From assembly GCA_964485605.1 (NCBI GenBank), contig CAZALQ010000001.1, forward strand, positions 604 to 64,603: DNA of 64,000 bases. Direction: 5' to 3'. Position numbers and translations under genes: made by a program. This stretch comes from an uncultured Oscillospiraceae bacterium. Lineage in GTDB: Bacteria > Bacillota > Clostridia > Peptostreptococcales > Anaerovoracaceae. The notes below the pieces were generated by a model, which worked only from the letters and a program-made list of their open reading frames with translations, searched no databases and was not told the DNA's origin. Position 1 is the stretch's first letter, and each line of letters opens with the position of its first letter. Shown piece after piece: positions 1,630 to 52,192 of the stretch.

Positions 1630-1647
1630 TATAAGTTCCTCCCTCTT

Positions 1648-2973: not shown

Positions 2974-2983
2974 CTTCTTCCTA

Positions 2984-4339
2984 TCAGTTACCCATTACAA
3001 GGCACACTACTACGATTCCTATTATCATTGCGGACCAGCAAACAGGAGCAATCCTCTTGATAAGCTTCCCCGACTCGATCTTGCAGCTTCCGGTTATAGT
3101 AAGAACACCGGGGTTGATAGGCGTGCAGTTCGTTCCGACGCTTACAGACACAAGGATAAGACTGGCAAGCACCTCTATGGGAAGTGATATTCCTCCGGAA
3201 AGACTCGCTGCAAGAGGCGCTATGATACTAAGTGCTCCAAAGAAAGACCCGGTCACCATTGAAATGAATGCTCCAAGGAGACAGATGACTTCCACAAGGA
3301 TGACAGACGGGATATTGGCTTTGCCAAGAAGTTCTGCAATGACCTTTAATCCGCCTACGCTATTGAGAAGCGCAGCAAAACTCATAGCAAGAATTATGGT
3401 AAGACCAAGGCCCCTCATATTGTTCCCGAAGGCATCAAAGAAATCACTGAGCACCTCAGATACGACAGACTTTTTAATATTGAAGATCTTGACCAGAGCA
3501 ATTACAACAAAGAGTGAAATAATGATAGCAGTGTTAACAGACATGGATATTGTTTTTACCAGCAGCGGGCTGAAGATAACCATTAGAATGACTGGGAATA
3601 GAGGAAACAAAGCATATATTCCCGGAACCTGAGGATCTGCTATAGGTTCGATTTCTACAGGAGCTTCATCTTTTTCTTTTTTGTCTATGATCTTCGAAGA
3701 AATAACATACACAATCAACGTGATCACCAGGATGATTCCCACTATCGGCAGCTGAGTATTGACAAACCACATAGTTGAATTGATTTCAAACCCCATAAGA
3801 GATGCTGCTGTTGCTGCCGTCGGTTCCACAGGTCCGTAAGATCCCATCATATACACAAGCATGGCTGCGCATGCTGCCCCATATGAAAGTCCCATATCAA
3901 GAAGTATAGGGAAGAAAGTTCCTATGAGCAGTGCCACAAGGGCTGGGCCCGTCGCAATAAAGATCTTTAAGACTGCACCTATTACGATGACAAAGCAGGC
4001 AACGATATACGGATTTTTTATACCCGAAAGAGGCTTCTTGAGTATATAGGTAAGCTTTGTCGTTGCCTTAAGCTTGTTCATGACCTCAACATAAGAGAAG
4101 ACCAGAATAATCGTAAATGCCACTCCACCGATGTTGGAGGACAGATAGTTTGCGATGTATGCAAACCAGTCGATAACTATGTTTCCTGTGGTTCCGTCAC
4201 CAAGTACAGAACCTCCTGTAACAGTGAGATAAATGAGCAGGAGCAGGATAAGACCCGAAAGAATAACTTTTAGATCAACTTTTTTCAGTATTGCAAATAC
4301 CATTATTGCAAATACGCAAAGAGTAAAAACAAGTGCCAT
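2984..4339 (-). CDS. DcuC/YfcC-like polytopic membrane transporter
   Basis: 451 aa with more than 10 predicted TM segments. Size and hydrophobic pattern fit anaerobic C4-dicarboxylate-carrier-like proteins. RBS aaggaggtt. Confidence 0.45.
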   Translation of the reverse strand: MALVFTLCVFAIMVFAILKKVDLKVILSGLILLLLIYLTVTGGSVLGDGTTGNIVIDWFAYIANYLSSNIGGVAFTIILVFSYVEVMNKLKATTKLTYILKKPLSGIKNPYIVACFVIVIGAVLKIFIATGPALVALLIGTFFPILLDMGLSYGAACAAMLVYMMGSYGPVEPTAATAASLMGFEINSTMWFVNTQLPIVGIILVITLIVYVISSKIIDKKEKDEAPVEIEPIADPQVPGIYALFPLFPVILMVIFSPLLVKTISMSVNTAIIISLFVVIALVKIFNIKKSVVSEVLSDFFDAFGNNMRGLGLTIILAMSFAALLNSVGGLKVIAELLGKANIPSVILVEVICLLGAFISMVTGSFFGALSIIAPLAASLSGGISLPIEVLASLILVSVSVGTNCTPINPGVLTITGSCKIESGKLIKRIAPVCWSAMIIGIVVVCLVMGN

Positions 4340-4539
4340 AATAACCTCCTTTAGATTTAATTAATATTGTTTCCTGTTATCAATTCTGGAGTATAAAGTC
4401 ACTTGAGAGTCAACGTATTTTTTTATAGAATATAGATACGGCAAAAGGATATCTATTCACATAATATTTCATAAATGTGGCATATTGCAGTCATATTTAT
4501 GCTGACACACATCTAAAGCAGGTTTAGAGGTTTTTAGTC

Positions 4540-5370
4540 ATGAATTATAAAATAAGCGACCTTGCAAACATATTTGAAGTAACGACAGAATCCATAAGAT
4601 TTTTTGAAAAAAAGGGAATAATCAGCCCTAAAAGAGATGAAGAAACTGGTTACAGGATATATTCCGGGTGGGATGCGTTCAGTCTTTTGGACTGGACGAT
4701 GTATAAGAAATGTGAGTTTTCTTTACAGGAGTATCTGACTCTCACAAATACTGACTCGCTGAGTATATGCTGCAATATGTTTGATAACAAACTGGTTGAG
4801 ATAGAAACAAAGATAGAACGCCTAACAATGCTCAAAGACTGGCTTTCTTTTTGGTCTTCAGAGCTTCTGGATTTTTCCTTAAATCTTAACAAAGTCCGTC
4901 TAAGAAGAATGCCGGAGATGGTCTTCATTCCCGTCGGTACAGAACATGCGGGCGATGATCTTGAGAACTATGTTATAGATAACGATGCAATGAAACTTCA
5001 CGCCTCCCTTCTCCCCTTCTGCCTTCCCGTAATACAAACATCAGTAGCATCTCTCTACAACGAAAAAGGTAACGCTAAGATTTATAGAGGCGGAATAATT
5101 AATAAGAGTTACCTTGAAAAGATGAACGCTGATCTTTCTGCTGTAGAGCCGGTCACAATCCCATCAAGTTTATTTCTTTCATATAACGTCTGCGTCGGTG
5201 ATATCGGAGGGCTTGACTTAAGCGAGCTATACCCTATTATCGATTATCTAAACGAAAGCAAATACACCGCCTACAACGAAGTCTACGGCCTTGTTATGGC
5301 CAGAATCAAAGAGGGCAGTGTATATAAAAGATATTTTCAGTTTTTACTCCCTGTTAAGAAATACATTTAA
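4540..5370 (+). CDS. MerR-family transcriptional regulator with C-terminal effector-binding (GyrI-like) domain
   Basis: The N-terminus YKISDLANIFEVTTESIRFFEKKGIISPKRDEETGYRIYS is a canonical MerR HTH. It is followed by a coiled-coil and a roughly 150-aa C-terminal domain. Confidence 0.75.
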   Translation: MNYKISDLANIFEVTTESIRFFEKKGIISPKRDEETGYRIYSGWDAFSLLDWTMYKKCEFSLQEYLTLTNTDSLSICCNMFDNKLVEIETKIERLTMLKDWLSFWSSELLDFSLNLNKVRLRRMPEMVFIPVGTEHAGDDLENYVIDNDAMKLHASLLPFCLPVIQTSVASLYNEKGNAKIYRGGIINKSYLEKMNADLSAVEPVTIPSSLFLSYNVCVGDIGGLDLSELYPIIDYLNESKYTAYNEVYGLVMARIKEGSVYKRYFQFLLPVKKYI

Positions 5371-17877: not shown

Positions 17878-20094
17878 ATGACCGTAGTATTCAGCAGAAA
17901 ATTTGAAGATATCGCAAGGATCACAGCGGGCCTTTGTGGTCTTCCTCTTGATGGCCGAAAATTGACTCTTTCGACAGTTGATAAAAAAATAGGTAAAGCC
18001 TTAAGTTACTATAAGGATTTCGGATACATCAGCCTATTTTCGGCAGTTATAAACCAAAAAATTGAAACTATATTTACCTGGGGAGACGATCTGTTTGAGA
18101 CCCACACCCTTTTTGATGAGAACAGAATTCCATTTCTTAAAAAGGTCTTGAAGGAATCGGAGCAGGCAGAGAATCTAAAAGGTATCTTTACCGGAAAGAT
18201 CGATGACCTGATTTTTGCTGGCAAATCCGAAGACAACGCATACTTTAAAGATGTGCTTACTCTTTACAATATTGAAAGACCCCTGATCCGTCTTTGCAAG
18301 ATAACGGAGTTTAGTGAAGAAGCTCTTAAGACCGCTTTTTCCTCCGGTCTTACAAGCGTAACATCATCTGAAATCGCTCTGGACAAAGCCGGGTGCTACA
18401 GAAGCGCTATAGATAAGATCGACATACGATTAAAAGGAACTGTTTCATCCGTCCTTCCGACGGCGGAGTATCCAGGAATAGAAACTCTATCCGCACTATC
18501 CTATATATATCAGCAAAATAAAAAAACCATAAGTAAGGCCTCTAATGACAGTACTTACAAAATTGCAGTTACCGGTAACTTTGCCGGAAGAAACTTCGTT
18601 CTTTCTTCCAAGCTTTCCTTTTCAAGTAAGGATTTAGCCGAAAGAGCCCTCAAAGACCTTCCTGCTGCTGCGGAAGTCATTAGTAAGGGCGGAAATACGA
18701 TTGAGAAAGAATTCCCAAAAGGGGCATTCACGAATTCCAGACTCCTTGTTGCAGCAAAAAAGGGACTTGGTTTTTCATCCGAGCAGACACTTGCAGCCCT
18801 ATCTTATCTATATAGCGGCGGATTTATAACCGACCCGCAGACAGAGTCCTCATTACTTCCAAAAAACAGTCGAAATGTACTCTTTGACAGACTTTCAGCT
18901 TTCAAAGAATCCTCCGTAGGTGATCTCCTTGCAGCTATGAAACTTCCTAACGCAAGAGATGAATACTTTTCGGAAAACGATACACATGGCATCATTATCA
19001 CAGAAAAAAAGCCTGTTATAAAAAACAAAGACGCAAAATCTATTTATAGACTTATTGTGACGGAACTTATAAAGGTCTATTATCCTCCAAGAGAAGAAAA
19101 AACATTTAAGATCACAGCAAAAGGAGGTGGCTATACCTTCTCAGGACGTGGAAAAAAACTAGTCCGTGCCGGTTTTTCTGAACTCGAAAACAGAAAACCT
19201 ATCAATGAAAATGTTCCTTTTGAAATAGAAAAAGGTAGTATGATCGCTCTAAGTTACCGTATTTCGGCTCCTGGGACCTCATCAACTCTTCCCGGTTTAT
19301 CAACAATGTCAAAATACGATTTTGGTCCCCTTCCCCTTTCCGAGCAAATAAGGATACTGTCCTCCTTAGGGCTTATCACAGTCACAAACGATAAGTACAG
19401 TATTGAAAAAAAGGCATACCCTATCCTCCGTATATTAAGACCGTGCAGCGGTCTTCTTGATGGCAAATTCATTCGTATACTCTGCTCAAACCTTGAAACG
19501 ATTTCAAACGACGATAAACAACGAAGAAAAGAAGCCGAAGATATAGTACTGTCTGATCTTGATGCCCTTATAGATTACTGGCAGAAGTCCATCCTTGAAG
19601 GACGGGCCGTAGAAGTCCCGGTACACTGCCCTGTTTGCTTATCTACGCTCAAAGAGTCCTCTGGAAGACTTCTATGTGATGATTGCGGTTTTGAAACTGA
19701 CCTGATTATCTCAGGTAGAACTATGAATATGCAAGAAATGGAGCATCTGTTCCAGGAGGGATCCACTCCCCTTATTGACGGATTCAACGGTGATTACCTT
19801 GCAAGACTTTATCTCTCGTCTGCAAAAGAGGTCTTTATTACAAGGGACTCCCAGTATTCATGCCCTGTATGCGGAGAAAAGATGCGGGTAAGAAAAAGTG
19901 ATCGTGCCTATGTTTGCAGCTGCGGATACGAATTAAGAAGGATCTATAAAGGCCATGAATTTACAAAAAAGGAACTTAGCACCCTTTTTACCACTCTTCA
20001 GCTGCCAAAAGTAAAGATAAATGAAGGAGGGGCAGCAAGAACAGTTACACTCATACTCGATAAAGGAAAGCAAGGAAGGATAACTGAGCTTTAG
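17878..20094 (+). CDS. Topoisomerase-IA (Topo III-like) homolog lacking catalytic residues; two C-terminal zinc ribbons
   Basis: GFITDPQTES occupies the place of the xITYPRTDS active-site motif (D319, codon 18832-18834). AGKSEDNA stands in place of the Toprim DxDxEG motif, and there is no N-terminal EKP motif. CPVCLS...CDDCGFE and CPVCGEK...CSCGYE form zinc ribbons. Confidence 0.7.
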   Translation: MTVVFSRKFEDIARITAGLCGLPLDGRKLTLSTVDKKIGKALSYYKDFGYISLFSAVINQKIETIFTWGDDLFETHTLFDENRIPFLKKVLKESEQAENLKGIFTGKIDDLIFAGKSEDNAYFKDVLTLYNIERPLIRLCKITEFSEEALKTAFSSGLTSVTSSEIALDKAGCYRSAIDKIDIRLKGTVSSVLPTAEYPGIETLSALSYIYQQNKKTISKASNDSTYKIAVTGNFAGRNFVLSSKLSFSSKDLAERALKDLPAAAEVISKGGNTIEKEFPKGAFTNSRLLVAAKKGLGFSSEQTLAALSYLYSGGFITDPQTESSLLPKNSRNVLFDRLSAFKESSVGDLLAAMKLPNARDEYFSENDTHGIIITEKKPVIKNKDAKSIYRLIVTELIKVYYPPREEKTFKITAKGGGYTFSGRGKKLVRAGFSELENRKPINENVPFEIEKGSMIALSYRISAPGTSSTLPGLSTMSKYDFGPLPLSEQIRILSSLGLITVTNDKYSIEKKAYPILRILRPCSGLLDGKFIRILCSNLETISNDDKQRRKEAEDIVLSDLDALIDYWQKSILEGRAVEVPVHCPVCLSTLKESSGRLLCDDCGFETDLIISGRTMNMQEMEHLFQEGSTPLIDGFNGDYLARLYLSSAKEVFITRDSQYSCPVCGEKMRVRKSDRAYVCSCGYELRRIYKGHEFTKKELSTLFTTLQLPKVKINEGGAARTVTLILDKGKQGRITEL

Positions 20095-20097
20095 TGT

Positions 20098-20251
20098 TTG
20101 ACTTAAAGTTAAATTCAGTGTAATATACCTATAGTTTATATTTTACTATTCTGGCGGCTTTAGCAAGCCGGATATCATCTGTTAAAAACAACTGTTAATC
20201 GTAGCACACCTTAAGGAAGGTATTTATACCTTTCTTGCGGTGTGTTTTTTT
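20098..20251 (+). promoter_or_regulatory. Module A: promoter TTGACT-17-TAATAT, conserved structured leader, intrinsic terminator
   Basis: -35 at 20098-20103 and -10 at 20121-20126. P1 hairpin CGGCTT/AAGCCG at 20155-20170. Conserved block GGATATCATCTGTTAAAAACAACTGTTAATCGTA at 20170-20203. Terminator at 20205-20251. Confidence 0.6.
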
Positions 20252-20282
20252 ATTTTGCTAATCGAGAATAGGAGGAAATGTA

Positions 20283-20594
20283 ATGCTCGAAATTAACCAA
20301 ATCTCCCTAACGGGAGAAATCGTCAGTGGCGAAAAAAACGACAAGGGTCTCTATCTTAAAGTCAGGCAAATGGTCGGAGGAAAGATGGAAACAATCTTCA
20401 CAGTCTTTGTTCCATCCAAAGCAAACCCAACCGCTCAGAACTTCAGGGAAAAGGACCTGGTACTCATCAACAACGGCCTTATCTATAGGAACGCAGAAGG
20501 TGAAGTCACCATCAGAGTCACCCGCTCTGACCAGCTTCAGATGATAAAGAAATGCCTTGATATGGGGCAGATCTCCGCAGAAGAAGTATTTTAA
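20283..20594 (+). CDS. Small OB-fold, SSB-like protein (candidate)
   Basis: 103 aa. The N-terminus INQISLTGEIV resembles the first SSB strand. RBS ggagg lies 7 nt upstream. Assignment is tentative. Confidence 0.4.
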   Translation: MLEINQISLTGEIVSGEKNDKGLYLKVRQMVGGKMETIFTVFVPSKANPTAQNFREKDLVLINNGLIYRNAEGEVTIRVTRSDQLQMIKKCLDMGQISAEEVF

Positions 20595-20608
20595 GTTAAA
20601 GCATTCAA

Positions 20609-20661
20609 TGTTAATCGGAAAACAGATCGCAGCCATAAATGATTGGCGGCGTTTTTGTTTT
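20609..20661 (+). terminator. TGTTAATCGGA box + imperfect hairpin + T-tract between the OB-fold gene and the AAA gene
   Basis: cgcagcca-taaatgat-tggcggcg pairs at 7 of 8 positions and is followed by tttttgtttt. Confidence 0.4.
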
Positions 20662-20679
20662 CAGGAAGGAAAATTAATA

Positions 20680-22626
20680 ATGGAACAAATCAAAACAGAC
20701 GCCTCTCTTTGGGGGTGGAAAAGTAAAACCGCTCTTGTACATCCTTTTGATCTGGTTGCAGACAAAAATGGACTCCCTGGCTATATCTTCAGGACAGGCA
20801 CTCCTGCAGGCAGCAGTATACGGCCGATCCCAGATTATATTAAGGCATTGGTCTACTATACTACTAGTTCAAACAGGCGCGAGGAAACAGGCTATGATCT
20901 GCCCGTGCCGGACCATCTTGCAATAGGGACGAAATCATTAAAAGGGTCCTCTGAGACAATCTTTGTCGAGTACAGGGAAAAACCCGGGGTCCCAACTGAC
21001 TGCATCATGTTTACCCTGGACACCGGCGAACTTAAAGGATGCCGCATCCACACAAAAAGCATTGAAACGGAAAGTTTTCGTCTTCAAAACCCCATCACAG
21101 GGGAAAAGGACGGAACAGCCGTATTTCTTGCTGTTCTTGTACGCGCTCTTTCCCATCCGGAAATGTCAAAGACCCTTCTTGATTGCATTAGTCAAATAGA
21201 AGGTATTCGAGATATTATTGCACCTCCGGGCAGTATAGATAAGATCTACAGGGGATATCTCTTAACCGCATGTGCAGAACTCTATGATGCATGCTGTATT
21301 TCAAAAGATCTAAACCTTCAGTGGCCCGATTCCGGAAGAGCGATTCCAAAGATCACAAAAAAGGACATCAGCAAGGGAATCGCATGTCCCTCTCCTGAAA
21401 AGGTACTTCTCGGCGAGTTTGAAACCCTTATCCCGACTGACGAAGGCGAAAGCATCGTTTTTCAGCCCGAAAAGTATAAAGGGAAGCTATTCCCAGGAAG
21501 AGTATACACAGAAGCTGAAAAACGTCTTATTCCATCTCTTCCCTCTGACTTCTTTGTTACAAAGCAGCTTATTGACATCCTTGATTCTGTTCTTGAAACA
21601 AAGGACGACTTTAAAGCAGCAAAAATCACACAGATTCTTTTGGAGGGTTCAGCAGGATCAGGTAAATCAGCCTCAGCAAGAGCTATATGTGCCATTTTCG
21701 GTCTCCCTATGGAGGTCTACACCTGCGGGGATAGAGACACTAAAGAGGAGATGGTACAGGTCATCATGCCTGACGTCTCTTCGTCTGACATAAAAGAAAT
21801 TTCGGAGAAAGAGAAGAAGCTTCTTGAAACCTTTACGAGAGAACAGGATACAGGAGATTTCGACGAATCTCTAAGACTTCTTGGTCTTCCGACTTATGAG
21901 GAATGTAGGCTTGACGCAGCCGTAGCCTTTGAGGAGATCACCGGTAACTTTGACGAATCTGTCGACACATCCGATGTTTATAGACTCGCCGTTGACAAAG
22001 CTTTATCTTCGGTGAAAAGTCTTATCAGAAAGATTCCTTCTTCTCAAGGTGTTAAGTATAAGAGCATAAAGTCTGCGATTATAAGGGCGATAGAACACGG
22101 ACACTGCCTTGTGTTTGAAGAAGTCGGAAATCTGCGTGATGCAGGTGCCCTTTCTTTCTTTAACGACGTATTCGACAAGGAAGGCACAGGTATCATCAAT
22201 ACAATGTACGGTGATATCAAAAGGCACCCCGACTTCATGATGATCGGAACAACAAATCGACCGGAAGACCCTGGCGTTCATGTAATGAACCCTGCATTTA
22301 GGTCAAGATTTCAGTATTTCGCAACATTTGATGATCTGTCCACTGAAACTCTTATGGGCATCGTCGAAAAAAAATGCGAGATTACAGATCCCGACCTTCT
22401 GAGAAGCATTGTCGAGGTCTACCAAAGAGCTGAGCAGGCAGGAAGAGATGTAGGCGCACATGCATATTTGACAATGAGATCCCTTTATCCGTTCGCAATG
22501 GCTATAAAAAGAGGCAAAGACCCTCAAAAGAGTTTTTGTCACTATATACTCAATGCCATTACTACGGTGCAGGATCAAATGGACGATATAGAATCCTCCA
22601 TTTCAGACTGCGCTCTGTTCCAGTAA
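20680..22626 (+). CDS. AAA+ ATPase (MoxR/CbbQ-like AAA_5 core) with about 330-aa unknown N-terminal domain
   Basis: The ATG at 20680 follows aggaagg. Walker A is LLEGSAGSGKS, Walker B is CLVFEEVGN, followed by PAFRSRF. The listed start at 20557 is rejected. Confidence 0.7.
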   Translation: MEQIKTDASLWGWKSKTALVHPFDLVADKNGLPGYIFRTGTPAGSSIRPIPDYIKALVYYTTSSNRREETGYDLPVPDHLAIGTKSLKGSSETIFVEYREKPGVPTDCIMFTLDTGELKGCRIHTKSIETESFRLQNPITGEKDGTAVFLAVLVRALSHPEMSKTLLDCISQIEGIRDIIAPPGSIDKIYRGYLLTACAELYDACCISKDLNLQWPDSGRAIPKITKKDISKGIACPSPEKVLLGEFETLIPTDEGESIVFQPEKYKGKLFPGRVYTEAEKRLIPSLPSDFFVTKQLIDILDSVLETKDDFKAAKITQILLEGSAGSGKSASARAICAIFGLPMEVYTCGDRDTKEEMVQVIMPDVSSSDIKEISEKEKKLLETFTREQDTGDFDESLRLLGLPTYEECRLDAAVAFEEITGNFDESVDTSDVYRLAVDKALSSVKSLIRKIPSSQGVKYKSIKSAIIRAIEHGHCLVFEEVGNLRDAGALSFFNDVFDKEGTGIINTMYGDIKRHPDFMMIGTTNRPEDPGVHVMNPAFRSRFQYFATFDDLSTETLMGIVEKKCEITDPDLLRSIVEVYQRAEQAGRDVGAHAYLTMRSLYPFAMAIKRGKDPQKSFCHYILNAITTVQDQMDDIESSISDCALFQ

Positions 22627-22702
22627 TTAAGTGAATTGCGAAACAAAAACCCTAAAACTTCAGTTACATATTGTTTTAGGGTTTATGTTTCAAGGAGGAA
22701 AA

Positions 22703-24817
22703 ATGAAACTCAAAAAAGAACAACTTAATAAGTTTATAAACTCGTACCGTTTTGCAAGCTTTCTAACTATGAAAGCAAAGGCTATACATAAGGAATTTCG
22801 TATTGCAGATGCTGAAGTTGTTATCGAAAGAAACCCAGACCCGGGATTTGTTGCCTATACGGACAATGTTCGTTATCACTTAAACCTGGGGAACAGGGCT
22901 TTTTTTGAAGGTCTTGATGATGAAGGAGTCGTTTCACTTTCATGCGGAGTACTCCTTCATGAGATAGGACATAGACTGTTTAGCTGTTTTACCGCTTCTT
23001 CCATATGGCAGACATCGATACGTGCAGCCCGGTTTTATCCGGAAGATCCGAAAGTATCCGGAAAGGAATACGAATATCTTTTAGAGATAAAAGACATGTT
23101 GGAGGATAAAAAACTCGCCGCTACTCTTGCTACTACGGTCGGCTGTCAGCTGTATAACGTCCTTGAAGATGGGAGAATCGAAGAATTGTGTCTTGACTTC
23201 TGCGGTAATCACCACACCCTTTATTCCGGACTCATTCTAGCACGATCAAGGCAGTTCAAAAACTCCGTTGCATTCGAAGAATGTAACGAGCTCTTTCGAA
23301 CTGATGATCCAATGAAACGGCTTTCCGCCATCATTTCTCTTATGTTGTTTTATGCAAGATTTACTGATGTGAAAGACCTCCCGGAAGACGGGGAAGACAC
23401 TGATCTATACCGCTGTTTTGAAAAGATCACGCCTTGTATAGATGAGTATCTAAATGCAAGATCTCAGGTTGAGCTTTGCAACGCCATGAATATCATTCTC
23501 ATCTCAATATGGCCGTATATAAGGGATCTTTTTAAAGATGATGAAAAGAAAGAAGGAGAAAATACTTCACCCTCGCCTGAACCGGAAGACAAAGAAGAAA
23601 AAACCTCAGAGGAATCTGGTTCTTCCGAAGAAACGATGGGGGGAGACTCATCTTCCTGTCTAGGTGCATCAAAAAGTCCTGGACTTACAATATCTAAAGA
23701 AGCCTTGGAAAAACTGGAATCCGTATTTTCCGGACTCCCCTCTACGGGTTTTGATCTTCCAGGAAGAGGAACAGACGATAGCAAAATGTCATCACTCCTT
23801 GACCAGAGAATGCCAATAATGAGAAACGATGTCATCACCACGGATGGTTCTGGCGAGCTTATCTATGCCGAGCAGGAAAGAGACTCCCAGACAGAACTTG
23901 ATGTCCGCACGGTCCTGAGGAAGATCGGTGAAGAACAGCGAGATGACGAAAAAGAAGAACTTCTCAAGAAAAGCATTGAAGATTTTGAAGGGAATATAGA
24001 TTTTCCTTCGATCCACAAAGGAGTTGACTGCAAAATCGTAAGAGAAAAGGTCTCAGAGAAGGACAGGATTGATTATCTTTCTATATCTAAGCCACTAAGG
24101 AAAATCGCAGAGCAAATCGCAAGAAAGTCGACCTTTCTTGAAGAAGAAACTGCATCTTATGAACTTAGGAATCGATATAGTGGCACTTCCCTTAACCCTG
24201 CATCTTTCGCCAGGGAAGATTATAAGATCTTTAAGAAAGACGTAGAGTTAGACCCTGAAACCAGCCTTAGCGTTGCCGTACTGATTGATGAATCTGGATC
24301 CATGCGCGGTTATTCCAGATCAGAAGCAGCCAAAAGAGCTGCAATACTTCTTTATGAATATTGCGACATTATGAAGATCCCTGTATGCATGTACGGGCAC
24401 AGCACAGAAGGCCGATATGTAACACTTTACGCATATGCCGATTTTGAAAAAAAGGACCCTGCTGACAGATATAGATTGATGAAGATCGATGCAAGATCCG
24501 AAAACAGAGACGGTTTCGCATTGAGATTTTTGAAGGAGAGGATAAAGAAAGAAGACTCTCTTGAAAAGATCCTCATTGTCATCTCCGACGGTCAACCGGC
24601 AGACTCTGGATACTTTGGAAGTGCAGCATATAAAGACCTTTCCGAAATTACGAAAGAATGTGAAAACGAAGGAATCTTTCTTATTGCTGCTGCTATCGGC
24701 AATGATAAACCAACAATAAAAGGTATCTATGGTGAACGGCACTTCCTTGATATCTCAGATCTTGATACCCTTCCCATAACCCTCACTAAACTTATTAAGG
24801 CACATATCAAAAAATAG
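22703..24817 (+). CDS. HExxH metallopeptidase-like N-domain + acidic linker + C-terminal vWA domain
   Basis: The ATG at 22703 follows aaggagg. Motifs are LLHEIGHRLF and the MIDAS sequence VLIDESGSM. The arrangement resembles DUF2201-type partners of MoxR ATPases. Confidence 0.7.
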   Translation: MKLKKEQLNKFINSYRFASFLTMKAKAIHKEFRIADAEVVIERNPDPGFVAYTDNVRYHLNLGNRAFFEGLDDEGVVSLSCGVLLHEIGHRLFSCFTASSIWQTSIRAARFYPEDPKVSGKEYEYLLEIKDMLEDKKLAATLATTVGCQLYNVLEDGRIEELCLDFCGNHHTLYSGLILARSRQFKNSVAFEECNELFRTDDPMKRLSAIISLMLFYARFTDVKDLPEDGEDTDLYRCFEKITPCIDEYLNARSQVELCNAMNIILISIWPYIRDLFKDDEKKEGENTSPSPEPEDKEEKTSEESGSSEETMGGDSSSCLGASKSPGLTISKEALEKLESVFSGLPSTGFDLPGRGTDDSKMSSLLDQRMPIMRNDVITTDGSGELIYAEQERDSQTELDVRTVLRKIGEEQRDDEKEELLKKSIEDFEGNIDFPSIHKGVDCKIVREKVSEKDRIDYLSISKPLRKIAEQIARKSTFLEEETASYELRNRYSGTSLNPASFAREDYKIFKKDVELDPETSLSVAVLIDESGSMRGYSRSEAAKRAAILLYEYCDIMKIPVCMYGHSTEGRYVTLYAYADFEKKDPADRYRLMKIDARSENRDGFALRFLKERIKKEDSLEKILIVISDGQPADSGYFGSAAYKDLSEITKECENEGIFLIAAAIGNDKPTIKGIYGERHFLDISDLDTLPITLTKLIKAHIKK

Positions 24818-24888
24818 TTTTATGTCAATCGTATTATTTTGCCAAAGGGAGATAAGCCTCCCTTTGGCAACGAAAAAGGAGATCCAAA

Positions 24889-25359
24889 ATGGGATATGAT
24901 TATCTAAAAGAAATGGATGTTGACATGGATAAGGGAAAAATCGTTCTTACGACACGTGAACCCCTTGCCGGTCCGGGAAACTGGGAGCGCTGGATTTTTA
25001 AACCGACCCAGCCAATATTTGAAGTAAGGCTTGCAGAGCTTACAAGAGAGCTCTTGAGCGGAAGGTTGGTTCCACTTCAGACATGTAACCATCAAGCCTT
25101 GTTTTCAATGCTTGCTAAAGCTCTTTGCTCTCTTTCCGTATCACTTTATAATTATAGCGATCTTTATAAAGATTTAAATGAAAAGGTGTTTATCTACTTT
25201 GTGGCGAAAGCGATAACGATTCCCTACTTTAAGGGTATTGAAATTGATATGGATAAGATAGTGCTATATATAAAAGAGACACTTTCCCCGAATTTTTATA
25301 TGTCATATATTGATGTAATTCATAAAAACACTGCTAATGAAGTAGTGAAAGGTGCATAA
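24889..25359 (+). CDS. Hypothetical 156-aa protein
   Basis: RBS aaggag. Last gene before a strong terminator. Confidence 0.6.
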   Translation: MGYDYLKEMDVDMDKGKIVLTTREPLAGPGNWERWIFKPTQPIFEVRLAELTRELLSGRLVPLQTCNHQALFSMLAKALCSLSVSLYNYSDLYKDLNEKVFIYFVAKAITIPYFKGIEIDMDKIVLYIKETLSPNFYMSYIDVIHKNTANEVVKGA

Positions 25360-25381: not shown

Positions 25382-25410
25382 CAGGCTGCTGATTGCAGCC
25401 TGTTTTTTTT
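25382..25410 (+). terminator. Intrinsic terminator
   Basis: caggctgc-tgatt-gcagcctg followed by T8. Confidence 0.8.
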
Positions 25411-25419
25411 GCGCTTTTA

Positions 25420-25576
25420 TTGACATCTTTCCATAGATAAGATAATATATCTGTAGTTTATTTTTTTACATTCCATCAGCACACTATGTGCAAGGTGGAT
25501 ATTAGTCGTTAAAAAACATGTTAATCGTAATGCACAGTAAACAGGGCCTTTGGGTCCTGTTTCTGTGTATTTTTTT
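25420..25576 (+). promoter_or_regulatory. Module B: promoter TTGACA-17-TAATAT, conserved structured leader, intrinsic terminator
   Basis: -35 at 25420-25425 and -10 at 25443-25448. P1 is CCATC..GCACA-cta-TGTGC..GGTGG at 25473-25498. The block GGATATTAGTCGTTAAAAAACATGTTAATCGTA follows. Terminator at 25532-25576. Confidence 0.6.
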
Positions 25577-25598
25577 GTTAATCGCAAAGGAGGAAAAG

Positions 25599-25835
25599 AT
25601 GAAAACAGGAAAAGGCTATCTCAGGAGATTGCCGGATGGTTTTTCAAAAGGAAGCTATTTCGGTTTTACCCTGAAAAAAAACTTTCTCTATGGAGAATCA
25701 GATGTCGGCACGCCTATCGCGTGCTGTGTGGATAACCCAGACGGAAAGTGTTATCTGTATACTTATTCAGATAACATATGGCAGAAATCTGACGTGGAGT
25801 TCAAAGATGTTCTCAGTCTGATCTGCGAAAACTAA
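25599..25835 (+). CDS. Hypothetical 78-aa protein
   Basis: The ATG at 25599 follows aaaggagg. The listed start at 25518 would cross the leader terminator and is rejected. Confidence 0.5.
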   Translation: MKTGKGYLRRLPDGFSKGSYFGFTLKKNFLYGESDVGTPIACCVDNPDGKCYLYTYSDNIWQKSDVEFKDVLSLICEN

Positions 25836-25862
25836 TCTTTTTGTTATTTATCGTGTATAGGC

Positions 25863-25925
25863 AATCGCAATACGCACTTCTTATGCAGTAAAAGAAAAAA
25901 CTGCACGCACGGGAAGTGTTTTTTT
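25863..25925 (+). terminator. CAATCGCA box + bulged hairpin + T7
   Basis: cacttc..tgcag-loop-ctgca..gaagtg is followed by ttttttt. It lies between the 78-aa gene and the next gene. Confidence 0.4.
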
Positions 25926-25995
25926 GTTGCCTGAATCGACTCTTTACCACCGGAAAGGAAGGCTTTCACGGCGCTTAAAGAGTAAGGAGGAAAAA

Positions 25996-27126
25996 ATGGA
26001 ATCAATAACTATCAAAACTAAAACTTCCTTTGATGAGTTCAAAGGAATGCTCGAAAACATCGAGGAAAACGATATCTGGGAAACCAGATTCGAAAAAGAC
26101 CTGAAGGTTAAGGTCGATGACGGGGATTTTAAACTCTGTACGGGAGATGAGGAATACGCGATACATAGTCTTGGCATTCCCTCTATTCTTGACAGGGCTG
26201 GTGTAAAGGGAATACTCTCTTCTTCTCTACTTAAACCAGAGACCGAAGACAAAGAGCTTCTTGCAACAGTAATCAACCTTGGCCTTGGACATTTTGGAGA
26301 CAAGTCCTGCACGGTACTGATAAGAGAAGGCTCGATCATGGCTGTCCACGGCAGCCAGTATTCCATTATGCTTCAAAGTGAAGGAATGGGTATCATTAAC
26401 GACGCCCTTCTGTCACGCTTTGAGAATGCAGAATTTGTAGAAGGTTCTTTTACCTACGAACATACTCCTGCCGTTTACAGAGTAGCAAGACCAGGTGATG
26501 ATCTTTTCTCAGAGTATGAAAAGGCCTGGAAAACAGCCGGACTATCCACAAGAGATCTTAATCAGACCTCTGCTTATGTAAAGGTGGATACTTCGGATGT
26601 CGGAGAAAGTTGTTTTTCTTTGACGCCGTATCTTGTGATTAAAAACAAATGGATGCCGCTTTCCAAGTCTCTTCAGGTAAAACACAGAGGAAAAAATGAA
26701 GCTGCAATGCTTAAAACCTGTGTTAATAACTGTTTTTCCGTTTTTTCTGAGTCATTTTCAAAGGAGATCCCAAAACTAATGACAATGACCCTCACCTACC
26801 CGCAGCAGGCCCTGGTGAGAATAATTACAAAACTTGGGATAAATCTTGCAGGGTCTCTTGGCCTTGCCGAAAACCTAATACAGAGTTTTGAACGAAAGTA
26901 TGACACATACTCAACAACAGTAAATGAGTATGGCGTCACTGTCCCGTCTGATGATAGGGATATCCTTACAGCGTTTGATGTTTACTGTTTCTTTCTTGAG
27001 ATGCAGTATTCCGCGGATTTCCTTAAACTGTCCGAAATGACTAGAGTAAGAATTATTGAAAAGCTCTACACAATTCCAGGACTTGATTGGGAAAAACTTG
27101 ATCAAGACGGATCAAGATATCTTTAG
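25996..27126 (+). CDS. Hypothetical 376-aa protein, DUF932-like (tentative)
   Basis: The ATG at 25996 follows aaggagg. Size and context fit the DUF932 proteins common in transfer leading regions. No firm motif. Confidence 0.35.
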   Translation: MESITIKTKTSFDEFKGMLENIEENDIWETRFEKDLKVKVDDGDFKLCTGDEEYAIHSLGIPSILDRAGVKGILSSSLLKPETEDKELLATVINLGLGHFGDKSCTVLIREGSIMAVHGSQYSIMLQSEGMGIINDALLSRFENAEFVEGSFTYEHTPAVYRVARPGDDLFSEYEKAWKTAGLSTRDLNQTSAYVKVDTSDVGESCFSLTPYLVIKNKWMPLSKSLQVKHRGKNEAAMLKTCVNNCFSVFSESFSKEIPKLMTMTLTYPQQALVRIITKLGINLAGSLGLAENLIQSFERKYDTYSTTVNEYGVTVPSDDRDILTAFDVYCFFLEMQYSADFLKLSEMTRVRIIEKLYTIPGLDWEKLDQDGSRYL

Positions 27127-27137
27127 GAGGAAAGAAA

Positions 27138-28301
27138 ATGACAAAAGAAAGAAAAAGGATCGGCACCTCTAGAATCCAAATCCTAGGGTCTTTTAAGGAA
27201 CTCGACGAGAAACTCGAAAAAAAGGAGATATCAAGAGAGGAATATGACAATATTTTCTCTCTTTCCCGCGTTCATGGTCTTTGCGGCGATATTCACCCCT
27301 TCGCCCTCGGCGGTTCAGACAGTGCTACTGTTCTTGGGATATCTCCCTGGAATGCGCCTTCCGATCTTCTTAAGGAAAAGATGGGGTATACCGAAAAGAA
27401 GATTACTGATAAGACTCGCTATCTTTTCTCTAGGGGGCATATCTACGAAGGTGCTATTAGGGAAGCTTTTTCTCTTATCAGCGGCCTTAAAACAGACGAA
27501 TTCCCTTATCAGGTAGTAAATGACCGCTGGCCCCACTGTGTGGCAAATATAGACGGCGTTGTCTTTGAGGGAGATCAAATGGGAATCCTTGAAATAAAGT
27601 CGACCGACTTTGGAACAGGATCATATAAGGCCTTCTTTGAGTATGAAGAGGTTCCTGAATACTATTTTTCTCAAATACAGTTCTATATGCAGGTTCTCGA
27701 AAGAGATTTTGCATATATCGTATGTGCCAAAGATTTCTCAAAGTCTGGCATGAAGTATTACAGGATCGAACGCGACGACGAATTCGGTGAAGAACTCATG
27801 TCAAAGATGGAAAACTTTGTTGACCGAGTCATAAAGCATATCCCTATTGATGACAGTATCGTTTCATCAGAAAAACTAATAAAGAGAAAACTCATCGAAT
27901 ATTGTGGGAAAGGTGACCCTAAAAAAGCTTCAATCAAGCTTGATAAATCCCTGGCTGATGTTTTTCGCTTATATGACTCACTAGATGCCGAAGTCCAAAC
28001 CCTTTCATCTGAGGTAAAAGAGAAAAACTCTGATATTGCAAAAAAAAAGAGACAAATGGAAGGACTTAAAGACAAGATAGCATATGAACTCAAAGACGCA
28101 GTTTCCGGGGAACTTATCATCGGTAACGAAGGATGGAGCATAACATCTCCGGCTGTTAAAGGTAACGATTGGGGACCCGGAGCAAAAGATTACATCAGAG
28201 AAACATACCCCGAAATTTTCGACGATGTTGCGCTTGCTTGCCCTCAAAAAAGAAAGTTATCCATTGTTAAAATCGAAAAAGGAGAAAAAAATGTGTCCTA
28301 G
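27138..28301 (+). CDS. YqaJ-type (lambda-exonuclease-fold) recombination exonuclease with C-terminal extension
   Basis: LGGSDSATVLGISPWNAPSDLLKEKMGY and ILEIKS match the YqaJ viral recombinase signature. Confidence 0.65.
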   Translation: MTKERKRIGTSRIQILGSFKELDEKLEKKEISREEYDNIFSLSRVHGLCGDIHPFALGGSDSATVLGISPWNAPSDLLKEKMGYTEKKITDKTRYLFSRGHIYEGAIREAFSLISGLKTDEFPYQVVNDRWPHCVANIDGVVFEGDQMGILEIKSTDFGTGSYKAFFEYEEVPEYYFSQIQFYMQVLERDFAYIVCAKDFSKSGMKYYRIERDDEFGEELMSKMENFVDRVIKHIPIDDSIVSSEKLIKRKLIEYCGKGDPKKASIKLDKSLADVFRLYDSLDAEVQTLSSEVKEKNSDIAKKKRQMEGLKDKIAYELKDAVSGELIIGNEGWSITSPAVKGNDWGPGAKDYIRETYPEIFDDVALACPQKRKLSIVKIEKGEKNVS

Positions 28302-30561
28302 TATAGATGCATGCTATTCCTGGACTCTATACGAAAACTCCGGTTACAAGATCATCCGCTACAAAGCGGATGATCCTGTGATCCTTCCCGACGGGAGAAA
28401 AGTGAACTATATAAACGCTGGCGGGAATGACTGCCCGGATATTAAAGGTATAACCTATCGCCTTAACGGAGATTTTAAGGAGTATCAGGACAAAAAAACA
28501 GGAAAAAATGAATACACTTTTTCGCTAAAGAGCTATGAAGAGCTTATCCCTTCTCAAAAGGAAGGAGTAATATCTTACCTTCAATCACTTGACGGCGTGG
28601 GAGAAAAAACTGCAATAGATCTCTTTGACTACTTCAGTTTCTCTGTTTTCGGGATAATTGAAAAGAATCCTGAAAGACTATCAGAAGTACGAGGTATAAG
28701 TCATACCAAGGCTATGAAGATATCAACTTCCTATTCCAAAAGAGTATCTAAAAAGGCCTTCTTTCAATATCTGTTCAATTATAATCTCTCAGAAAGTATG
28801 ATCTCTAAAATAATGAGATCTGAAACAACCGGAGATATAGATAAGATAAAAGAAGACCCATATCTTATAATAGAATGTGGAGTCCCTTTTTATACTGCAG
28901 ACAGGATCGCAAAAGACGAAAATATCCTAGAGAATGACGAAAGAAGGATTTCGGCAGCCATTCTGGAAGTTTTAAAACAGAGCGAAGAGGGAGGGTTCTT
29001 ATTTGGAAGTTCAAAATACCCTGAATTTGTTTATGACAGATTCTTAAGAAGACCTATCTACAGGTTTCTGAATTCTGAAGAAACAAATGTCACCGGGAAT
29101 ACTTATCTTCCCTACCCTATTCTTTATCTCAAAGTACTTTTGCTTCTTGACTACCCTATTAGCGAGTCATCAATAAAGAAAACCTTATCTATACTAAAAG
29201 TAAGAGGAAAAATACACTACATAAAAGGAATAGATATTGACGATACTTTCGTCTTTCTAAAAGAAACCTTTGATGCTGAATACTCCTCTGCAAGTAAGAT
29301 AAAAAGTCTTTTATCTTCAGACGTAAAGAGTGTTGATCACTTAAGCGAACGGATTGCGAAAGCTGAAGGAGATCAGGGATTAAGACTCTCTATTGAGCAG
29401 CGAAATGCTGTTATCACTTCCCTGTCCAATCCTGTGTCTATAATCACAGGAGGTCCTGGAACAGGAAAGAGTTCAATCCTAAAAATCATAGTTGATGTAT
29501 ATAAGGGAACATTTCCAAGGAACGAAATATACCTTGCATCCCCTACAGGCCAAGCTGCAAAAAGAATGCACGATGTAACCGGTCTTAGAGCTGAAACGAT
29601 ACATTCACTTCTTGGGATAAGACCTGATTGTGATTACACACCCTTCTTTACTCTTCAAGATTCTCTGGTCGTTATTGATGAGACTTCAATGATAGGAACT
29701 AAGCTTCTTTCAGATCTCCTTCTATCTATAGGAAAAGGAACCAATCTAATCTTTGTAGGTGATCCTAATCAGCTGCCATCAGTAGAAGTTGGAAACTGCT
29801 TAAAAGAGATGATTTCATCTGGAATCATTCCTGTGTCAAGACTTACTAAGACTTTTAGAACAAAAGATGGTTCACTGATTGCTGTTAACGCTGCAAGAAT
29901 AAAGAATAAAGAGATATCTTTGGATTATTCTGACGAGTTCCAATTCATAGAAACATCAAATGATTCCGAAACTGTAGATAAGATCAAAGAAATATACAAG
30001 TCTTACGTAGATGAAATTGGGATAGATAATGTGATAGTCCTCTCCCCTTTTTATAAGTCTACTTTGACTGGAGTAAAATCTCTTAATAACTTACTTAGAA
30101 GTACTATTAGAGGAGACCTTTCAAAAACGAAAAGTTATACACACCTCGGAGTTACTTACTACGAAGGAGACAGGATTATGTACATTCATAATCAAGGAAA
30201 TCTTACAAATGGTGATATAGGCTATATCAGCAAGATATCTTATATCTCAGGAAAACCAGTCGTGGTCATTAAGATTAATGGGTCTGAAGAAGAGATATCT
30301 GGTGACTATCTTAGCTACATAAGGCTTTCTTTCAGTCAGACAGTCCATAAAAGTCAGGGCCTTGAGTATAAAGTGGTCGTCATAGCACTATCTGAAGCTC
30401 ATTCTATACTTCTAAGTAATCCCCTTATTTATACGGCGATGACGAGATCTAAGTTAAGATGTATATGCATTGGAAGTCATGCGGCCCTAGATAAGGCCAT
30501 ACTTACTGACGCCACGTGCGAGCGAAGAAGTAAATTTGGAAATTTCCTGAATAATCTTTAG
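28291..30561 (+). CDS. recD2: RecD2-type SF1B DNA helicase
   Basis: N-terminal HhH (LQSLDGVGEKTAIDLF). Helicase motifs GGPGTGKS, VIDETSM, GDPNQLPSV and SQTVHKSQGLEYKVVVI. The ATG at 28291 follows aaaggag. Confidence 0.8.
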   Translation: MCPSIDACYSWTLYENSGYKIIRYKADDPVILPDGRKVNYINAGGNDCPDIKGITYRLNGDFKEYQDKKTGKNEYTFSLKSYEELIPSQKEGVISYLQSLDGVGEKTAIDLFDYFSFSVFGIIEKNPERLSEVRGISHTKAMKISTSYSKRVSKKAFFQYLFNYNLSESMISKIMRSETTGDIDKIKEDPYLIIECGVPFYTADRIAKDENILENDERRISAAILEVLKQSEEGGFLFGSSKYPEFVYDRFLRRPIYRFLNSEETNVTGNTYLPYPILYLKVLLLLDYPISESSIKKTLSILKVRGKIHYIKGIDIDDTFVFLKETFDAEYSSASKIKSLLSSDVKSVDHLSERIAKAEGDQGLRLSIEQRNAVITSLSNPVSIITGGPGTGKSSILKIIVDVYKGTFPRNEIYLASPTGQAAKRMHDVTGLRAETIHSLLGIRPDCDYTPFFTLQDSLVVIDETSMIGTKLLSDLLLSIGKGTNLIFVGDPNQLPSVEVGNCLKEMISSGIIPVSRLTKTFRTKDGSLIAVNAARIKNKEISLDYSDEFQFIETSNDSETVDKIKEIYKSYVDEIGIDNVIVLSPFYKSTLTGVKSLNNLLRSTIRGDLSKTKSYTHLGVTYYEGDRIMYIHNQGNLTNGDIGYISKISYISGKPVVVIKINGSEEEISGDYLSYIRLSFSQTVHKSQGLEYKVVVIALSEAHSILLSNPLIYTAMTRSKLRCICIGSHAALDKAILTDATCERRSKFGNFLNNL

Positions 30562-35068: not shown

Positions 35069-35596
35069 AAACAAAAATTAAAAACTTAAAAAGATGGATG
35101 GAATTGAAATACCGCTAAAATAAACGACCAACCTAACGCGTCAGGTTGAAACGTAACAAACCATATAGAGACAGCTTTTAGTATTGATATATCAACAATT
35201 CAAATTGAAAAGTCTAAAAAAATTTGTACATAGTTTTGTGTTTTACCCTCTAAAAACCATTGTAATCAAAAACATAAAAAATCCTATGTTTTTGGTCTTA
35301 CAATCAGTGACAGAATGTCGAACATTTTGACATCCTATCTGATCCGTTTTCCTGTAATCTCTAGCTCGTATAATAAGGAGTGTTAGGCCGGTCAAAATCT
35401 TTCCTATAGGCGAGTGGGTCGCATGATACTTAAACCTTTTAATTCTATAAGGGGGGTAATAGTTATCTGTAGTTGAAATAAAGGGAAAACCGCCAAAATG
35501 CGAGGAGTTGTCCTTGTAAACGTAAAGTTATTCGTGAACATAGATATCTTTCGCCATTTCGCCTATTTTTCGCTCTGCGCGGCATCTAACAAACTG

Positions 35597-35747
35597 TTGA
35601 CATACATTCATTTCGTGATATACTCAAGATACAGTTAATTGTTTTACATTCCGTTTGCATGTGCAGGACGGATATCATCTGTTAAAAATTTTGTTAATCG
35701 TAACACACTAAAGAAAGGTGCGAGCCTTTCTTCCAGTGTGTTTTTTT
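35597..35747 (+). promoter_or_regulatory. Module C: promoter TTGACA-16-TATACT (TG-extended), conserved structured leader, intrinsic terminator
   Basis: -35 at 35597-35602 and -10 at 35619-35624. P1 is CCGT..GCA-tg-TGC..ACGG at 35651-35671. The block GGATATCATCTGTTAAAAATTTTGTTAATCGTA lies at 35670-35703. The terminator at 35703-35747 has perfect stems. Confidence 0.65.
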
Positions 35748-52143: not shown

Positions 52144-52192
52144 TAAAACAGAGAAAGGTTTTATCTATGATAAACCCTTAAGGGAGATGCCA

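Follow-up and report, generated by a model that had tools for sequence, protein, structure and literature searches.

What is the function of the gene pair that recurs in phages and plasmids under the label 'CobS/CobT-like', a label that is routinely read as cobalamin or porphyrin biosynthesis and behind which no experiment was found? This question is raised here by an operon of four genes, g1 to g4, located in a 64,000-nucleotide stretch of contig CAZALQ010000001.1 from an uncultured Oscillospiraceae bacterium (this whole stretch is referred to as the window, and all coordinates are window positions). The window is a Clostridia-type conjugative element, and the operon represents the Clostridia branch of a pair, widespread in phages and plasmids, that is formed by a 'CobS/CobT-like' AAA+ ATPase and a protein in which a zincin-like domain is joined to a von Willebrand factor A (vWA) domain. 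In the literature, the pair has been noted in comparative work, in which no assigned function was found. As to its role, we put forward the tentative but plausible reading that the module helps the element to establish itself, when incoming or recombining, through the removal of a host protein, which could be a factor bound to single-stranded DNA (ssDNA)-binding protein (SSB), a defence sensor or a nuclease. The four genes are listed below (aa, amino acids; OB, oligonucleotide/oligosaccharide-binding; MIDAS, metal ion-dependent adhesion site).

20283-20594, + strand: g1, 103 aa; predicted OB-fold protein with a conserved acidic/aromatic C-terminal tail (..SAEEVF)
20680-22626, + strand: g2, 648 aa counted from the ATG; MoxR-class (AAA_5) AAA+ ATPase
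22703-24817, + strand: g3, 704 aa; zincin-like N-domain, acidic linker and MIDAS vWA domain
24889-25359, + strand: g4, 156 aa; no family match in the libraries scanned

The proteins of the operon

A check of open reading frames (ORFs) and motifs confirmed the four + strand genes and the motifs that the original prediction had quoted for them, since GSAGSGKS and CLVFEE in g2, and LLHEIGHRLF and DESGSM in g3, are all found in the translations. The genes are real: the same four calls are made on an independent ENA metagenome contig, and homologues of g1, g2 and g3 occur in other genomes. The g2 frame also holds an alternative, longer ORF with a TTG start at 20557, and g3 is preceded by a strong ribosome-binding site (RBS), AAGGAGG, 8 nt 5' of its start.

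The g2 protein matches Pfam AAA_5 with 38.6 bits, against a cut-off of 22, and its earlier assignment to the MoxR/CbbQ-type ATPases is borne out by comparison with the PDB, in which a family profile of 30 members matches midasin (4e-84), CbbQ (2e-22), CobS (6e-19) and NorQ (4e-13), and in which the single sequence finds midasin as its best match (1e-29). The protein is laid out as an N-terminal extension of ~280 aa followed by the AAA core (residues 281-648), which contains an insert of ~100 aa (about 365-455). Residues G323, G328, the Walker A lysine K329, the Walker B glutamate E481, the sensor-1 asparagine N526 and R543 are invariant in 30 of 30 family members, and R600 is present in 29 of the 30. 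Judged by these residues, g2 is a MoxR-class AAA+ ATPase with all catalytic residues intact, those of Walker A, the Walker B glutamate, sensor 1, the arginine finger and sensor 2 included. The Walker B motif, canonically D-E, reads hhhh-Q-E in 24 of the 30 members (g2 residues 476-481), E-E in g2 itself and N-E in the ATPase of an IncC plasmid (L029 9902-10870; related loci are designated by such L numbers). Among phage protein families, g2 matches PHROG 249 (6e-13). A word-indexed protein search returned two relatives of g2 and 11 of g3, and a full HMMER scan returned more for g2, namely 35 cluster representatives below 1e-30; among the matches listed, many are proteins of 600-660 aa that align with part or all of the N-terminal extension of g2. 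The g2 family is small but real. Its N-terminal extension matches no Pfam family in the 30 members and no PDB sequence, and shows no relation to DUF6530, a domain encoded beside the ATPase gene in some related loci. The possibility that the extension is the fused counterpart of a 302-aa protein encoded next to the IncC ATPase, by gene fission or fusion, was rejected, as no relation between the two was found.

The g3 protein consists of a zincin-like N-domain (residues 1-280), a disordered acidic Ser/Glu linker (280-376) with 22 Asp/Glu and 18 Ser residues, a middle region, and a vWA domain (about 520-704). In the N-domain, the HExxH motif occupies residues 86-90, and H86, E87, H90, N152, E155, D156 and E160 are invariant in nine homologues, as are the MIDAS residues D529, S531, S533 and D629 of the vWA domain. 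Pfam VWA and CobT_C are both matched above their cut-offs. The invariant residues, the VWA match and the composition of the linker uphold the architecture originally read for this protein, an HExxH domain, an acidic linker and a MIDAS-intact vWA domain. By profile, the vWA domain is closest to those of CobT (2.8e-18) and NorD; by fold, it is closest to NorD and to the MIDAS domain of MDN1. The N-domain is modelled by AlphaFold with a predicted local distance difference test (pLDDT) score of ~90 and with three strands before the HExxH helix, and in Pfam it has only weak, single-member matches to Zn-peptidase families, M54 (0.0012) and DUF2268 (0.009). The N-domain family of CobT is not listed for any of 11 g3-type N-domains at E values up to 10. 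While the Foldseek search of the whole g3 model against the PDB is dominated by vWA matches, that against BFVD gives a full-length alignment to phage CobT-like proteins (5e-16), among which are those of uncultured siphoviruses, haloarchaeal tailed viruses, Gordonia phages, Thermus phage P74-26 and Lactococcus phage KSY1. In agreement with this, g3 matches PHROG 5298 (8e-13) over residues 83-674.

The small g1 protein has no match to SSB or to any other family in Pfam, NCBIfam or PHROG at E values up to 0.1. Its AlphaFold model, built with six homologues, has a pLDDT of 82.4 and a predicted template modelling score (pTM) of 0.73, and shows the order b1-b2-b3-a-b4-b5 of the classic OB topology. 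Foldseek aligns this model, with TMq values of 0.6-0.69, to the anticodon-binding OB domains of class IIb LysRS, AsnRS and AspRS, and to Pot1, the mitochondrial SSB Rim1, Teb1 and CST. The model and these matches are in line with the earlier description of g1 as an OB-fold protein, and g1 is predicted to be a small OB-fold protein of nucleic-acid-binding type. The C-terminal tail of the family is conserved (G-E-x-S-A-[EK]-E-x-F) and recalls the acidic partner-binding tip of bacterial SSB.

Conservation in Clostridia and relatives in other mobile DNA

The g2 and g3 genes are adjacent in the window, and a g2-like ATPase gene lies 5' of a g3-like gene in every related locus. These loci come from Oscillospiraceae, Anaerovoracaceae, Senimuribacter, Metaclostridioides, Paraclostridium, Terrisporobacter and other Peptostreptococcaceae. 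Searched with a g1 profile, five independent loci carry a g1 homologue immediately 5' of the ATPase gene, which are L002/L012 (a Rep3 contig), L003/L004 (a Tn916-type integrative and conjugative element, ICE), L007, L014 and L015. The g1-g2-g3 trio is syntenic across Clostridia plasmids and ICEs. Locus L002 shares with the window the upstream genes for a 203-aa and a 131-aa protein as well. The fourth gene behaves differently: g4 has no match in Pfam, NCBIfam, PHROGs or PADLOC, its only homologue in the related loci examined is found in the closest relative, L011, directly after g3 and with 40% identity, and it is absent from all other related loci examined. A relationship of g4 to DUF6530 was considered and none was found. 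The g4 gene is a lineage-specific accessory gene, and because its homologue occurs only in L011, the conserved unit is the trio with a variable fourth gene. The original prediction had described a self-contained operon of four genes that would be syntenic in related elements; it stands as to self-containment and as to the synteny of the first three genes, and falls as to the fourth. Comparison of the operon DNA with a plasmid collection by megablast gave no near-identical match.

Related loci with other arrangements are also found. A chromosomal cassette of Peptostreptococcaceae (L016-L020 and L026; e.g., L018 7445-12043) is made up of four genes, for a 117-aa protein, DUF6530, the ATPase and the zincin-vWA protein, and is found in different flanks from one species to another. 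Comparison of the 117-aa protein with g1 found no homology; judged by eye, it is GIY-YIG-like. In the Enterococcus faecium plasmid p114-2 (L009 9983-12723), DUF6530 is followed by an AAA-vWA fusion without the zincin domain. DUF6530 thus stands beside ATPase-vWA genes both in the Peptostreptococcaceae cassettes and in p114-2, and this family appears to have it as an alternative small partner. The Tn916-type ICE of gut metagenomes (L003-L006; e.g., L003 15219-16975) has Tn916-like Xis and Int and carries the genes for the OB protein, the ATPase, a 225-aa protein and the zincin-vWA protein; a few kb downstream it encodes homologues of SecG, SecE and SecY, which constitute an element-encoded accessory Sec translocon. 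In L010 (MT835792.1, an unverified 'Bacteriophage sp.' from human faeces), an SSB-like protein (214-915; PHROG 44) is encoded two genes 5' of a 603-aa ATPase, which is followed by an 88-aa helix-turn-helix (HTH) protein and a zincin-vWA protein 30% identical to g3.

Outside the Clostridia, the pair is found in conjugative plasmids and ICEs of the IncC/SXT type. Conservation of a MoxR-like ATPase and a vWA protein was described for pCAR1, R478, Rts1, SXT and R391 (Miyakoshi et al., PMC2642839), and the same MoxR-vWA pair is listed for pAQU1 (PMC4036041). In IncC plasmid pVC211 the gene order is ATPase, hypothetical, ssb, bet, lambda-exo, DUF3150 and VWA protein. This VWA protein, of ~600-700 aa, has the layout of g3, with AYTD, HEAAHVRFTDF (HExxHxxFTxF), NVLEDCRIE (NxLEDxRIE), a low-complexity linker and DMSSSM (DxSxS). 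Although identity between the IncC and window proteins is too low for BLAST, profile comparison with hhalign aligns the g3 N-domain with the IncC VWA protein (probability 95%, E = 2.6e-8) and the g2 core (281-642) with the IncC ATPase (probability 98%, E = 3e-13), and the YqaJ exonuclease of the window is related to the IncC lambda-exo family (phmmer E = 3e-6). The window and the IncC plasmid are both conjugative elements in which the pair is co-oriented in one cluster with an OB/ssDNA-binding-type protein and a lambda-Exo/YqaJ-type exonuclease. However, the 322-aa IncC ATPase is without the ~280-aa N-terminal extension and the ~100-aa insert of g2, its gene is separated from that of the VWA protein by the hypothetical-ssb-bet-exo-DUF3150 block whereas g2 and g3 are adjacent, and IncC has a canonical SSB whereas the window has a 103-aa OB protein without a Pfam match to SSB.

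In phages, the families to which g2 and g3 belong are annotated as 'porphyrin biosynthesis' (CobS-like, PHROG 249) and 'cobalamin biosynthesis protein' (CobT-like, PHROG 5298), and the spread of viral cobST has been described (PMC8651126). Counted by records, CobS-like ATPases occur in about 500 from phages and about 1,900 from plasmids, half of them conjugative. Phage examples include T4-like cyanophages, Vibrio phage ICP2, Gordonia phages, haloarchaeal tailed viruses and Thermus phage P74-26. Those phage CobT-like proteins that were translated have an N-terminal HExxH, as in g3, and the phage cobS and cobT genes are adjacent, as are g2 and g3, but in the reverse order (CobT before CobS) in the ICP2-type phages, whose pair adjoins primase and polymerase genes. 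A long N-terminal extension like that of g2 is present in the Gordonia phage ATPase, while CobS of ICP2 is a protein of ~370 aa. No g1-like OB gene lies beside the pair in the phages inspected. Fusion of a metallopeptidase to the vWA protein of the phage MoxR-vWA pair has been reported, together with a proposed role in virion assembly (Iyer et al., PMC7824862); neither this role nor the supply of cobalamin, the two proposed for phages, fits a plasmid. Because the pair and its peptidase fusion had already been noted (PMC2642839, PMC7824862, PMC8651126), the earlier suggestion that the combination is undescribed does not hold. What is new here is the Clostridia branch, the large N-terminal extension and insert of the ATPase, and the dedicated OB-fold partner.

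Among characterised systems, the metallo-enzyme maturation pairs NorQ-NorD, CobS-CobT and CbbQ-CbbO, whose structures are solved, share with g2 and g3 the ATPase clade and the vWA subtype, by profile and fold, and their NorD/CobT/CbbO-type vWA partner has the layout of g3, with an N-domain, a flexible linker and a C-terminal vWA domain. In the cryo-electron microscopy structure of NorQD, a finger of the vWA domain reaches into the pore of the ATPase, which remodels the linker of NorD (PMC13036017). By analogy, NorQD-type pairs, in which the vWA domain docks on the hexamer and the linker is remodelled (PMC13036017; PMC9976466), may serve as the best available mechanistic template for g2 and g3. 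The differences are nevertheless considerable, as g2 has extra domains, the N-domain of g3 is a zincin-like HExxH domain in which the CobT N-domain was not detected, and genes for client enzymes were not found near g2 and g3. A Pfam scan of 38 window ORFs, ten of which were also scanned with NCBIfam and among which small ORFs are covered in part, revealed no CobN, cobalamin-pathway or nor genes, and no CobN or cobalamin-pathway genes were found in the related loci. With the NCBIfam equivalogs, g3 reaches 26.7 bits against the CobT model (TIGR01651), for which the cut-off is 759, and only over profile positions 489-568; g2 matches neither the CobS nor the NorQ equivalog, and the module gives no NorD match. 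A PDB profile search with the g3 N-domain gave no match, CobT chains included. The alternative that the original prediction had named as its refutation, a standard CobST or NorQD metabolic module with matching partner genes nearby, was rejected on these scores, which lie far below the cut-off, and on the client genes, which were not found.

Two further systems share part of this architecture. Midasin (Rea1/Mdn1), the best PDB match of the g2 core by sequence and, through the MDN1 MIDAS domain, among the top folds for the g3 vWA domain, has in common with the pair the logic of an AAA ring and a MIDAS domain that grips an acidic residue of the client for extraction. It differs in being a eukaryotic protein of ribosome biogenesis in which six AAA modules are fused in one chain of ~4,800 aa, and in having no peptidase domain. 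The MoxR-vWA-VMAP ternary systems (Kaur et al. 2020, PMC7159879) combine MoxR and vWA proteins with fused effectors, occasionally a metallopeptidase; in the window the third partner is instead a small OB-fold protein, and the context is one of DNA processing rather than the conflict islands of multicellular bacteria. A VMAP or beta-propeller component was not found, g1 being an OB fold, and g4 and the flanking genes being without such a Pfam domain.

Leader, boundaries and genomic setting

The operon is accompanied by the following signals.

20098-20126, + strand: promoter-like site, predicted by consensus scan (TTGACT, 17-nt spacer, TAATAT; 9/12 matches)
20127-20282, + strand: leader with a small 5' hairpin, the unpaired conserved GUUAAAAA..GUUAAUCGUA, a terminator-like hairpin, U7 and the RBS of g1
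22647-22684, + strand: intergenic hairpin between g2 and g3, read from the sequence; perfect 12-bp stem AAACCCTAAAAC/GTTTTAGGGTTT, no T-run
24841-24868, + strand: intergenic hairpin between g3 and g4, read from the sequence; perfect 11-bp stem, no T-run
25382-25410, + strand: intrinsic terminator, from terminator scan and sequence; 8-bp stem with six GC pairs (25382-25402), then T8

The unit is bounded as originally described because it has its own promoter-like site and leader on the left and, on the right, a strong terminator that is the top-listed site of a terminator scan over 14-32 kb. The two intergenic hairpins could act in the processing or stability of the RNA or, inside the operon, as partial terminators. 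The leader RNA folds with -44.9 kcal/mol (z = -4.75), and its terminator-like hairpin (20205-20244) is followed by U7 (20245-20251) and then by the RBS of g1 (AGGAGG). Because this strong terminator hairpin stands between the promoter and the genes, expression of g1-g4 probably needs antitermination. A second copy of the arrangement of promoter, leader and terminator opens the next transcription unit at 25420 (promoter 25420-25448), and the g1 leader aligns with the leaders at 25412-25602 and about 35560-35725, with a third copy of the motif near 35692. The repeated unit, which consists of a promoter, a leader of ~110 nt with unpaired GUUAAAAA..GUUAAUCGUA, and a terminator hairpin of 19-20 bp with a U-run, is found 5' of at least three transcription units (20098-20251, 25420-25575 and about 35600-35717), and resembles a signal for antitermination or attenuation that these units of the element have in common. 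Comparison of the leader with Rfam gave no family at gathering thresholds, and the exact motif was not found upstream of the g1 homologues in other loci. Among the transfer genes, the element encodes a sigma factor of the sigma-70/ECF type (52115-52738), which may bear on the promoters driving the repeated leader units.

The conjugative nature of the window is apparent from the VirB4-like and VirD4-like ATPases and the M23 hydrolase of a type IV secretion system (T4SS), and ParA, ParB and a DnaD/HTH replication-type protein are encoded as well. The operon is located inside a long co-oriented block that comprises a topoisomerase fragment, g1-g4, a 78-aa gene, a 400-aa protein (g6), a YqaJ exonuclease and a RecD2 helicase. 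The topoisomerase gene (17878-20094), just 5' of the operon, encodes a type IA homologue that matches only the central Topoisom_bac domain, carries several C-terminal zinc ribbons and gives no Toprim match; a topoisomerase is kept 5' of the module in L002, and weaker topoisomerase matches are found in L008, L014 and L015. The downstream block (25599-30561) holds the 78-aa gene, g6, YqaJ and RecD2, and the YqaJ and RecD2 ORFs overlap by 77 nt. The g6, YqaJ and RecD2 genes are syntenic in L002 and L007, and the 78-aa gene is syntenic in L002. The g6 gene occupies the slot where a single-strand annealing protein would be expected; its product belongs to no family found and has no detectable relation to the Bet or DUF3150 proteins of IncC. 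Metabolic and transport genes (for a URO-D-family protein, GntP-like and DcuC-like permeases and a MerR regulator) occupy the left end of the window (463-5370) and are either cargo or chromosomal flank.

Possible roles of the module

How could such a module aid the establishment of the element? By analogy with NorQ-NorD, CobS-CobT, CbbQ-CbbO and midasin, g2 would form a hexamer on which the vWA domain of g3 would dock, and ATP hydrolysis would pull on or remodel the linker of g3 or a client protein, an acidic residue of which would be held by the MIDAS site. The context of the operon suggests that this client may be a protein associated with the ssDNA intermediates of the element, that g1 may bring the machine to ssDNA or, alternatively, that its tail may serve as a ligand of the MIDAS site or of an SSB partner, and that the client may then be cleaved by the zincin domain or released by the ATPase. 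An ssDNA-binding-type protein accompanies the pair in three lineages, since g1 is predicted to be such a protein here, ssb is present in IncC and an SSB-like protein in L010. That an ssDNA-binding protein and an exonuclease recur as neighbours speaks against the 'cobalamin' annotation, and the conserved zincin motif, the adjacency of the genes and the dedicated OB partner make a DNA-linked remodelling or peptidase role more plausible than a metabolic one. A more specific version of this reading, in which g1, g2 and g3 together would form an ssDNA-targeted AAA+ peptidase machine that strips or cleaves a host protein (an SSB-associated factor, or an immune sensor or nuclease) off the incoming strand, is on the unlikely side.

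Genetic data that touch on this reading come from other elements. In SXT, deletion of s060-s073 cuts transfer more than 100-fold, mostly through s063, these s-numbers not being mapped to the ATPase and vWA genes, and the loss is no more than 10-fold on deletion of bet, exo, s067, s068 or s070 (PMC2791158). The SXT gene s073, not mapped to the vWA gene, is not needed for transfer and ranks among the core genes that diverge most (PMC2791158). In phage Bas54, a 'MoxR ATPase', likened to g2 by name only, is reported in a 2025 preprint to be needed to overcome the predicted defence DS-28 (10.1101/2025.11.20.689424). Taken together, s073 and the Bas54 ATPase are indirect hints of a host-directed role. 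Several points weigh against the establishment reading. The g3 N-domain is without a significant Pfam or PDB match by sequence profile, so that motif conservation is what its putative peptidase activity is deduced from. With pI values of 4.5-7.9 the g1 family is acidic, and anticodon-binding OB domains of tRNA synthetases are among its best fold matches as much as SSBs are. The link to ssDNA is not universal, because the chromosomal cassettes of Peptostreptococcaceae are without g1, in whose place they have DUF6530 and another small protein. A relaxase or oriT was not identified in the window, which bears on the putative position of the operon in a leading, early-entry region, as originally read, and PADLOC gave no significant match, with weak matches only for g2 (PDC-M37B, 1.4e-4; IetA, 0.037) and none for g1, g3 and g4.

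The main rival of the establishment reading, possible but rather doubtful, is that the module is an accessory chaperone for the recombination and replication proteins of the element itself, such as YqaJ and its partner, RecD2, the topoisomerase or the primase, and has no host target. The operon is co-oriented with the topoisomerase, YqaJ and RecD2 genes, all three of which are kept in L002 and the last two in L007, the ATPase and vWA genes of IncC bracket ssb-bet-exo, the ICP2-type pair has its primase and polymerase neighbours, and the MoxR-vWA pairs characterised so far each act in the maturation of one particular enzyme (PMC9976466; PMC13036017). Proteolysis rather than plain chaperoning, however, is what the conserved zincin-like active site suggests, and the Peptostreptococcaceae chromosomal cassettes occur without recombination genes. 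The small transfer phenotypes of the SXT bet, exo and neighbouring deletions (PMC2791158) neither link the pair to these proteins nor unlink it from them.

That the operon is instead a cargo system for defence, exclusion or abortive infection, with the ATPase-vWA pair as sensor of an invader and the peptidase as effector, is improbable. MoxR-vWA ternary conflict systems do exist, some of them with peptidase effectors fused to the vWA component (PMC7159879), and the Peptostreptococcaceae cassette, with its varying flanks and a small protein that is GIY-YIG-nuclease-like by eye, resembles mobile defence cassettes. Nevertheless, a known defence system was rejected, as no PADLOC model matched when the defence idea of the original prediction was checked, and the VMAP/beta-propeller third component was not found. 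Moreover, the pair belongs to the core genes of lytic phages (cyanophages, ICP2-type and Gordonia phages), in which a role in host defence is unlikely, and the operon lies among DNA-processing backbone genes and not in a cargo island.

Even less probable is a function as assembly chaperone and processing peptidase of a large structure, which would here be the conjugative T4SS, in the way proposed for jumbo-phage virions. Virion assembly with peptidolytic processing has been suggested for the phage MoxR-vWA-metallopeptidase pair (Iyer et al., PMC7824862), where a MoxR-vWA system is also cited in tail development of Acidianus two-tailed virus, and the window does encode VirB4, VirD4 and the M23 hydrolase. 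However, the operon is ~20 kb away from the T4SS genes and embedded in DNA-processing genes, the pair is common to phages and plasmids, which share no structural apparatus, the chromosomal cassettes have no virion or T4SS genes nearby, and SXT s073, which is not mapped to the vWA gene, is dispensable for transfer (PMC2791158). Finally, a genuine metal-chelatase motor (CobS/CobT or NorQ/NorD) that boosts host cobalamin synthesis or metallo-cofactor insertion is largely refuted and hardly credible, for although the vWA domain of g3 is most similar to those of CobT and NorD, the g2 core is related to CobS and NorQ, viral CobST has been proposed to hijack host CobN (Liu et al., PMC8651126) and a URO-D-family gene is present at 463-1629, the equivalog scores of g2 and g3 speak against it, the CobT N-domain is undetected in 11 of 11 members even at E = 10 and is replaced by an invariant HExxH zincin motif, CobN, nor and other client genes were not found among the ORFs scanned, and the neighbours are DNA-metabolism genes.

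Carriers of the pair include the clinically important IncC resistance plasmids, to which a Gram-positive branch is added by the window. Definition of the function would put thousands of annotations right, and could reveal an establishment step in a new cell that is shared by phages and conjugative elements. If the ssDNA-targeted machine were to prove true, the cobST genes, those of the cyanophage core pair and of the IncC backbone included, would not be auxiliary metabolic genes for cobalamin, and phage and plasmid cobST would be a shared establishment or anti-defence device of mobile DNA.

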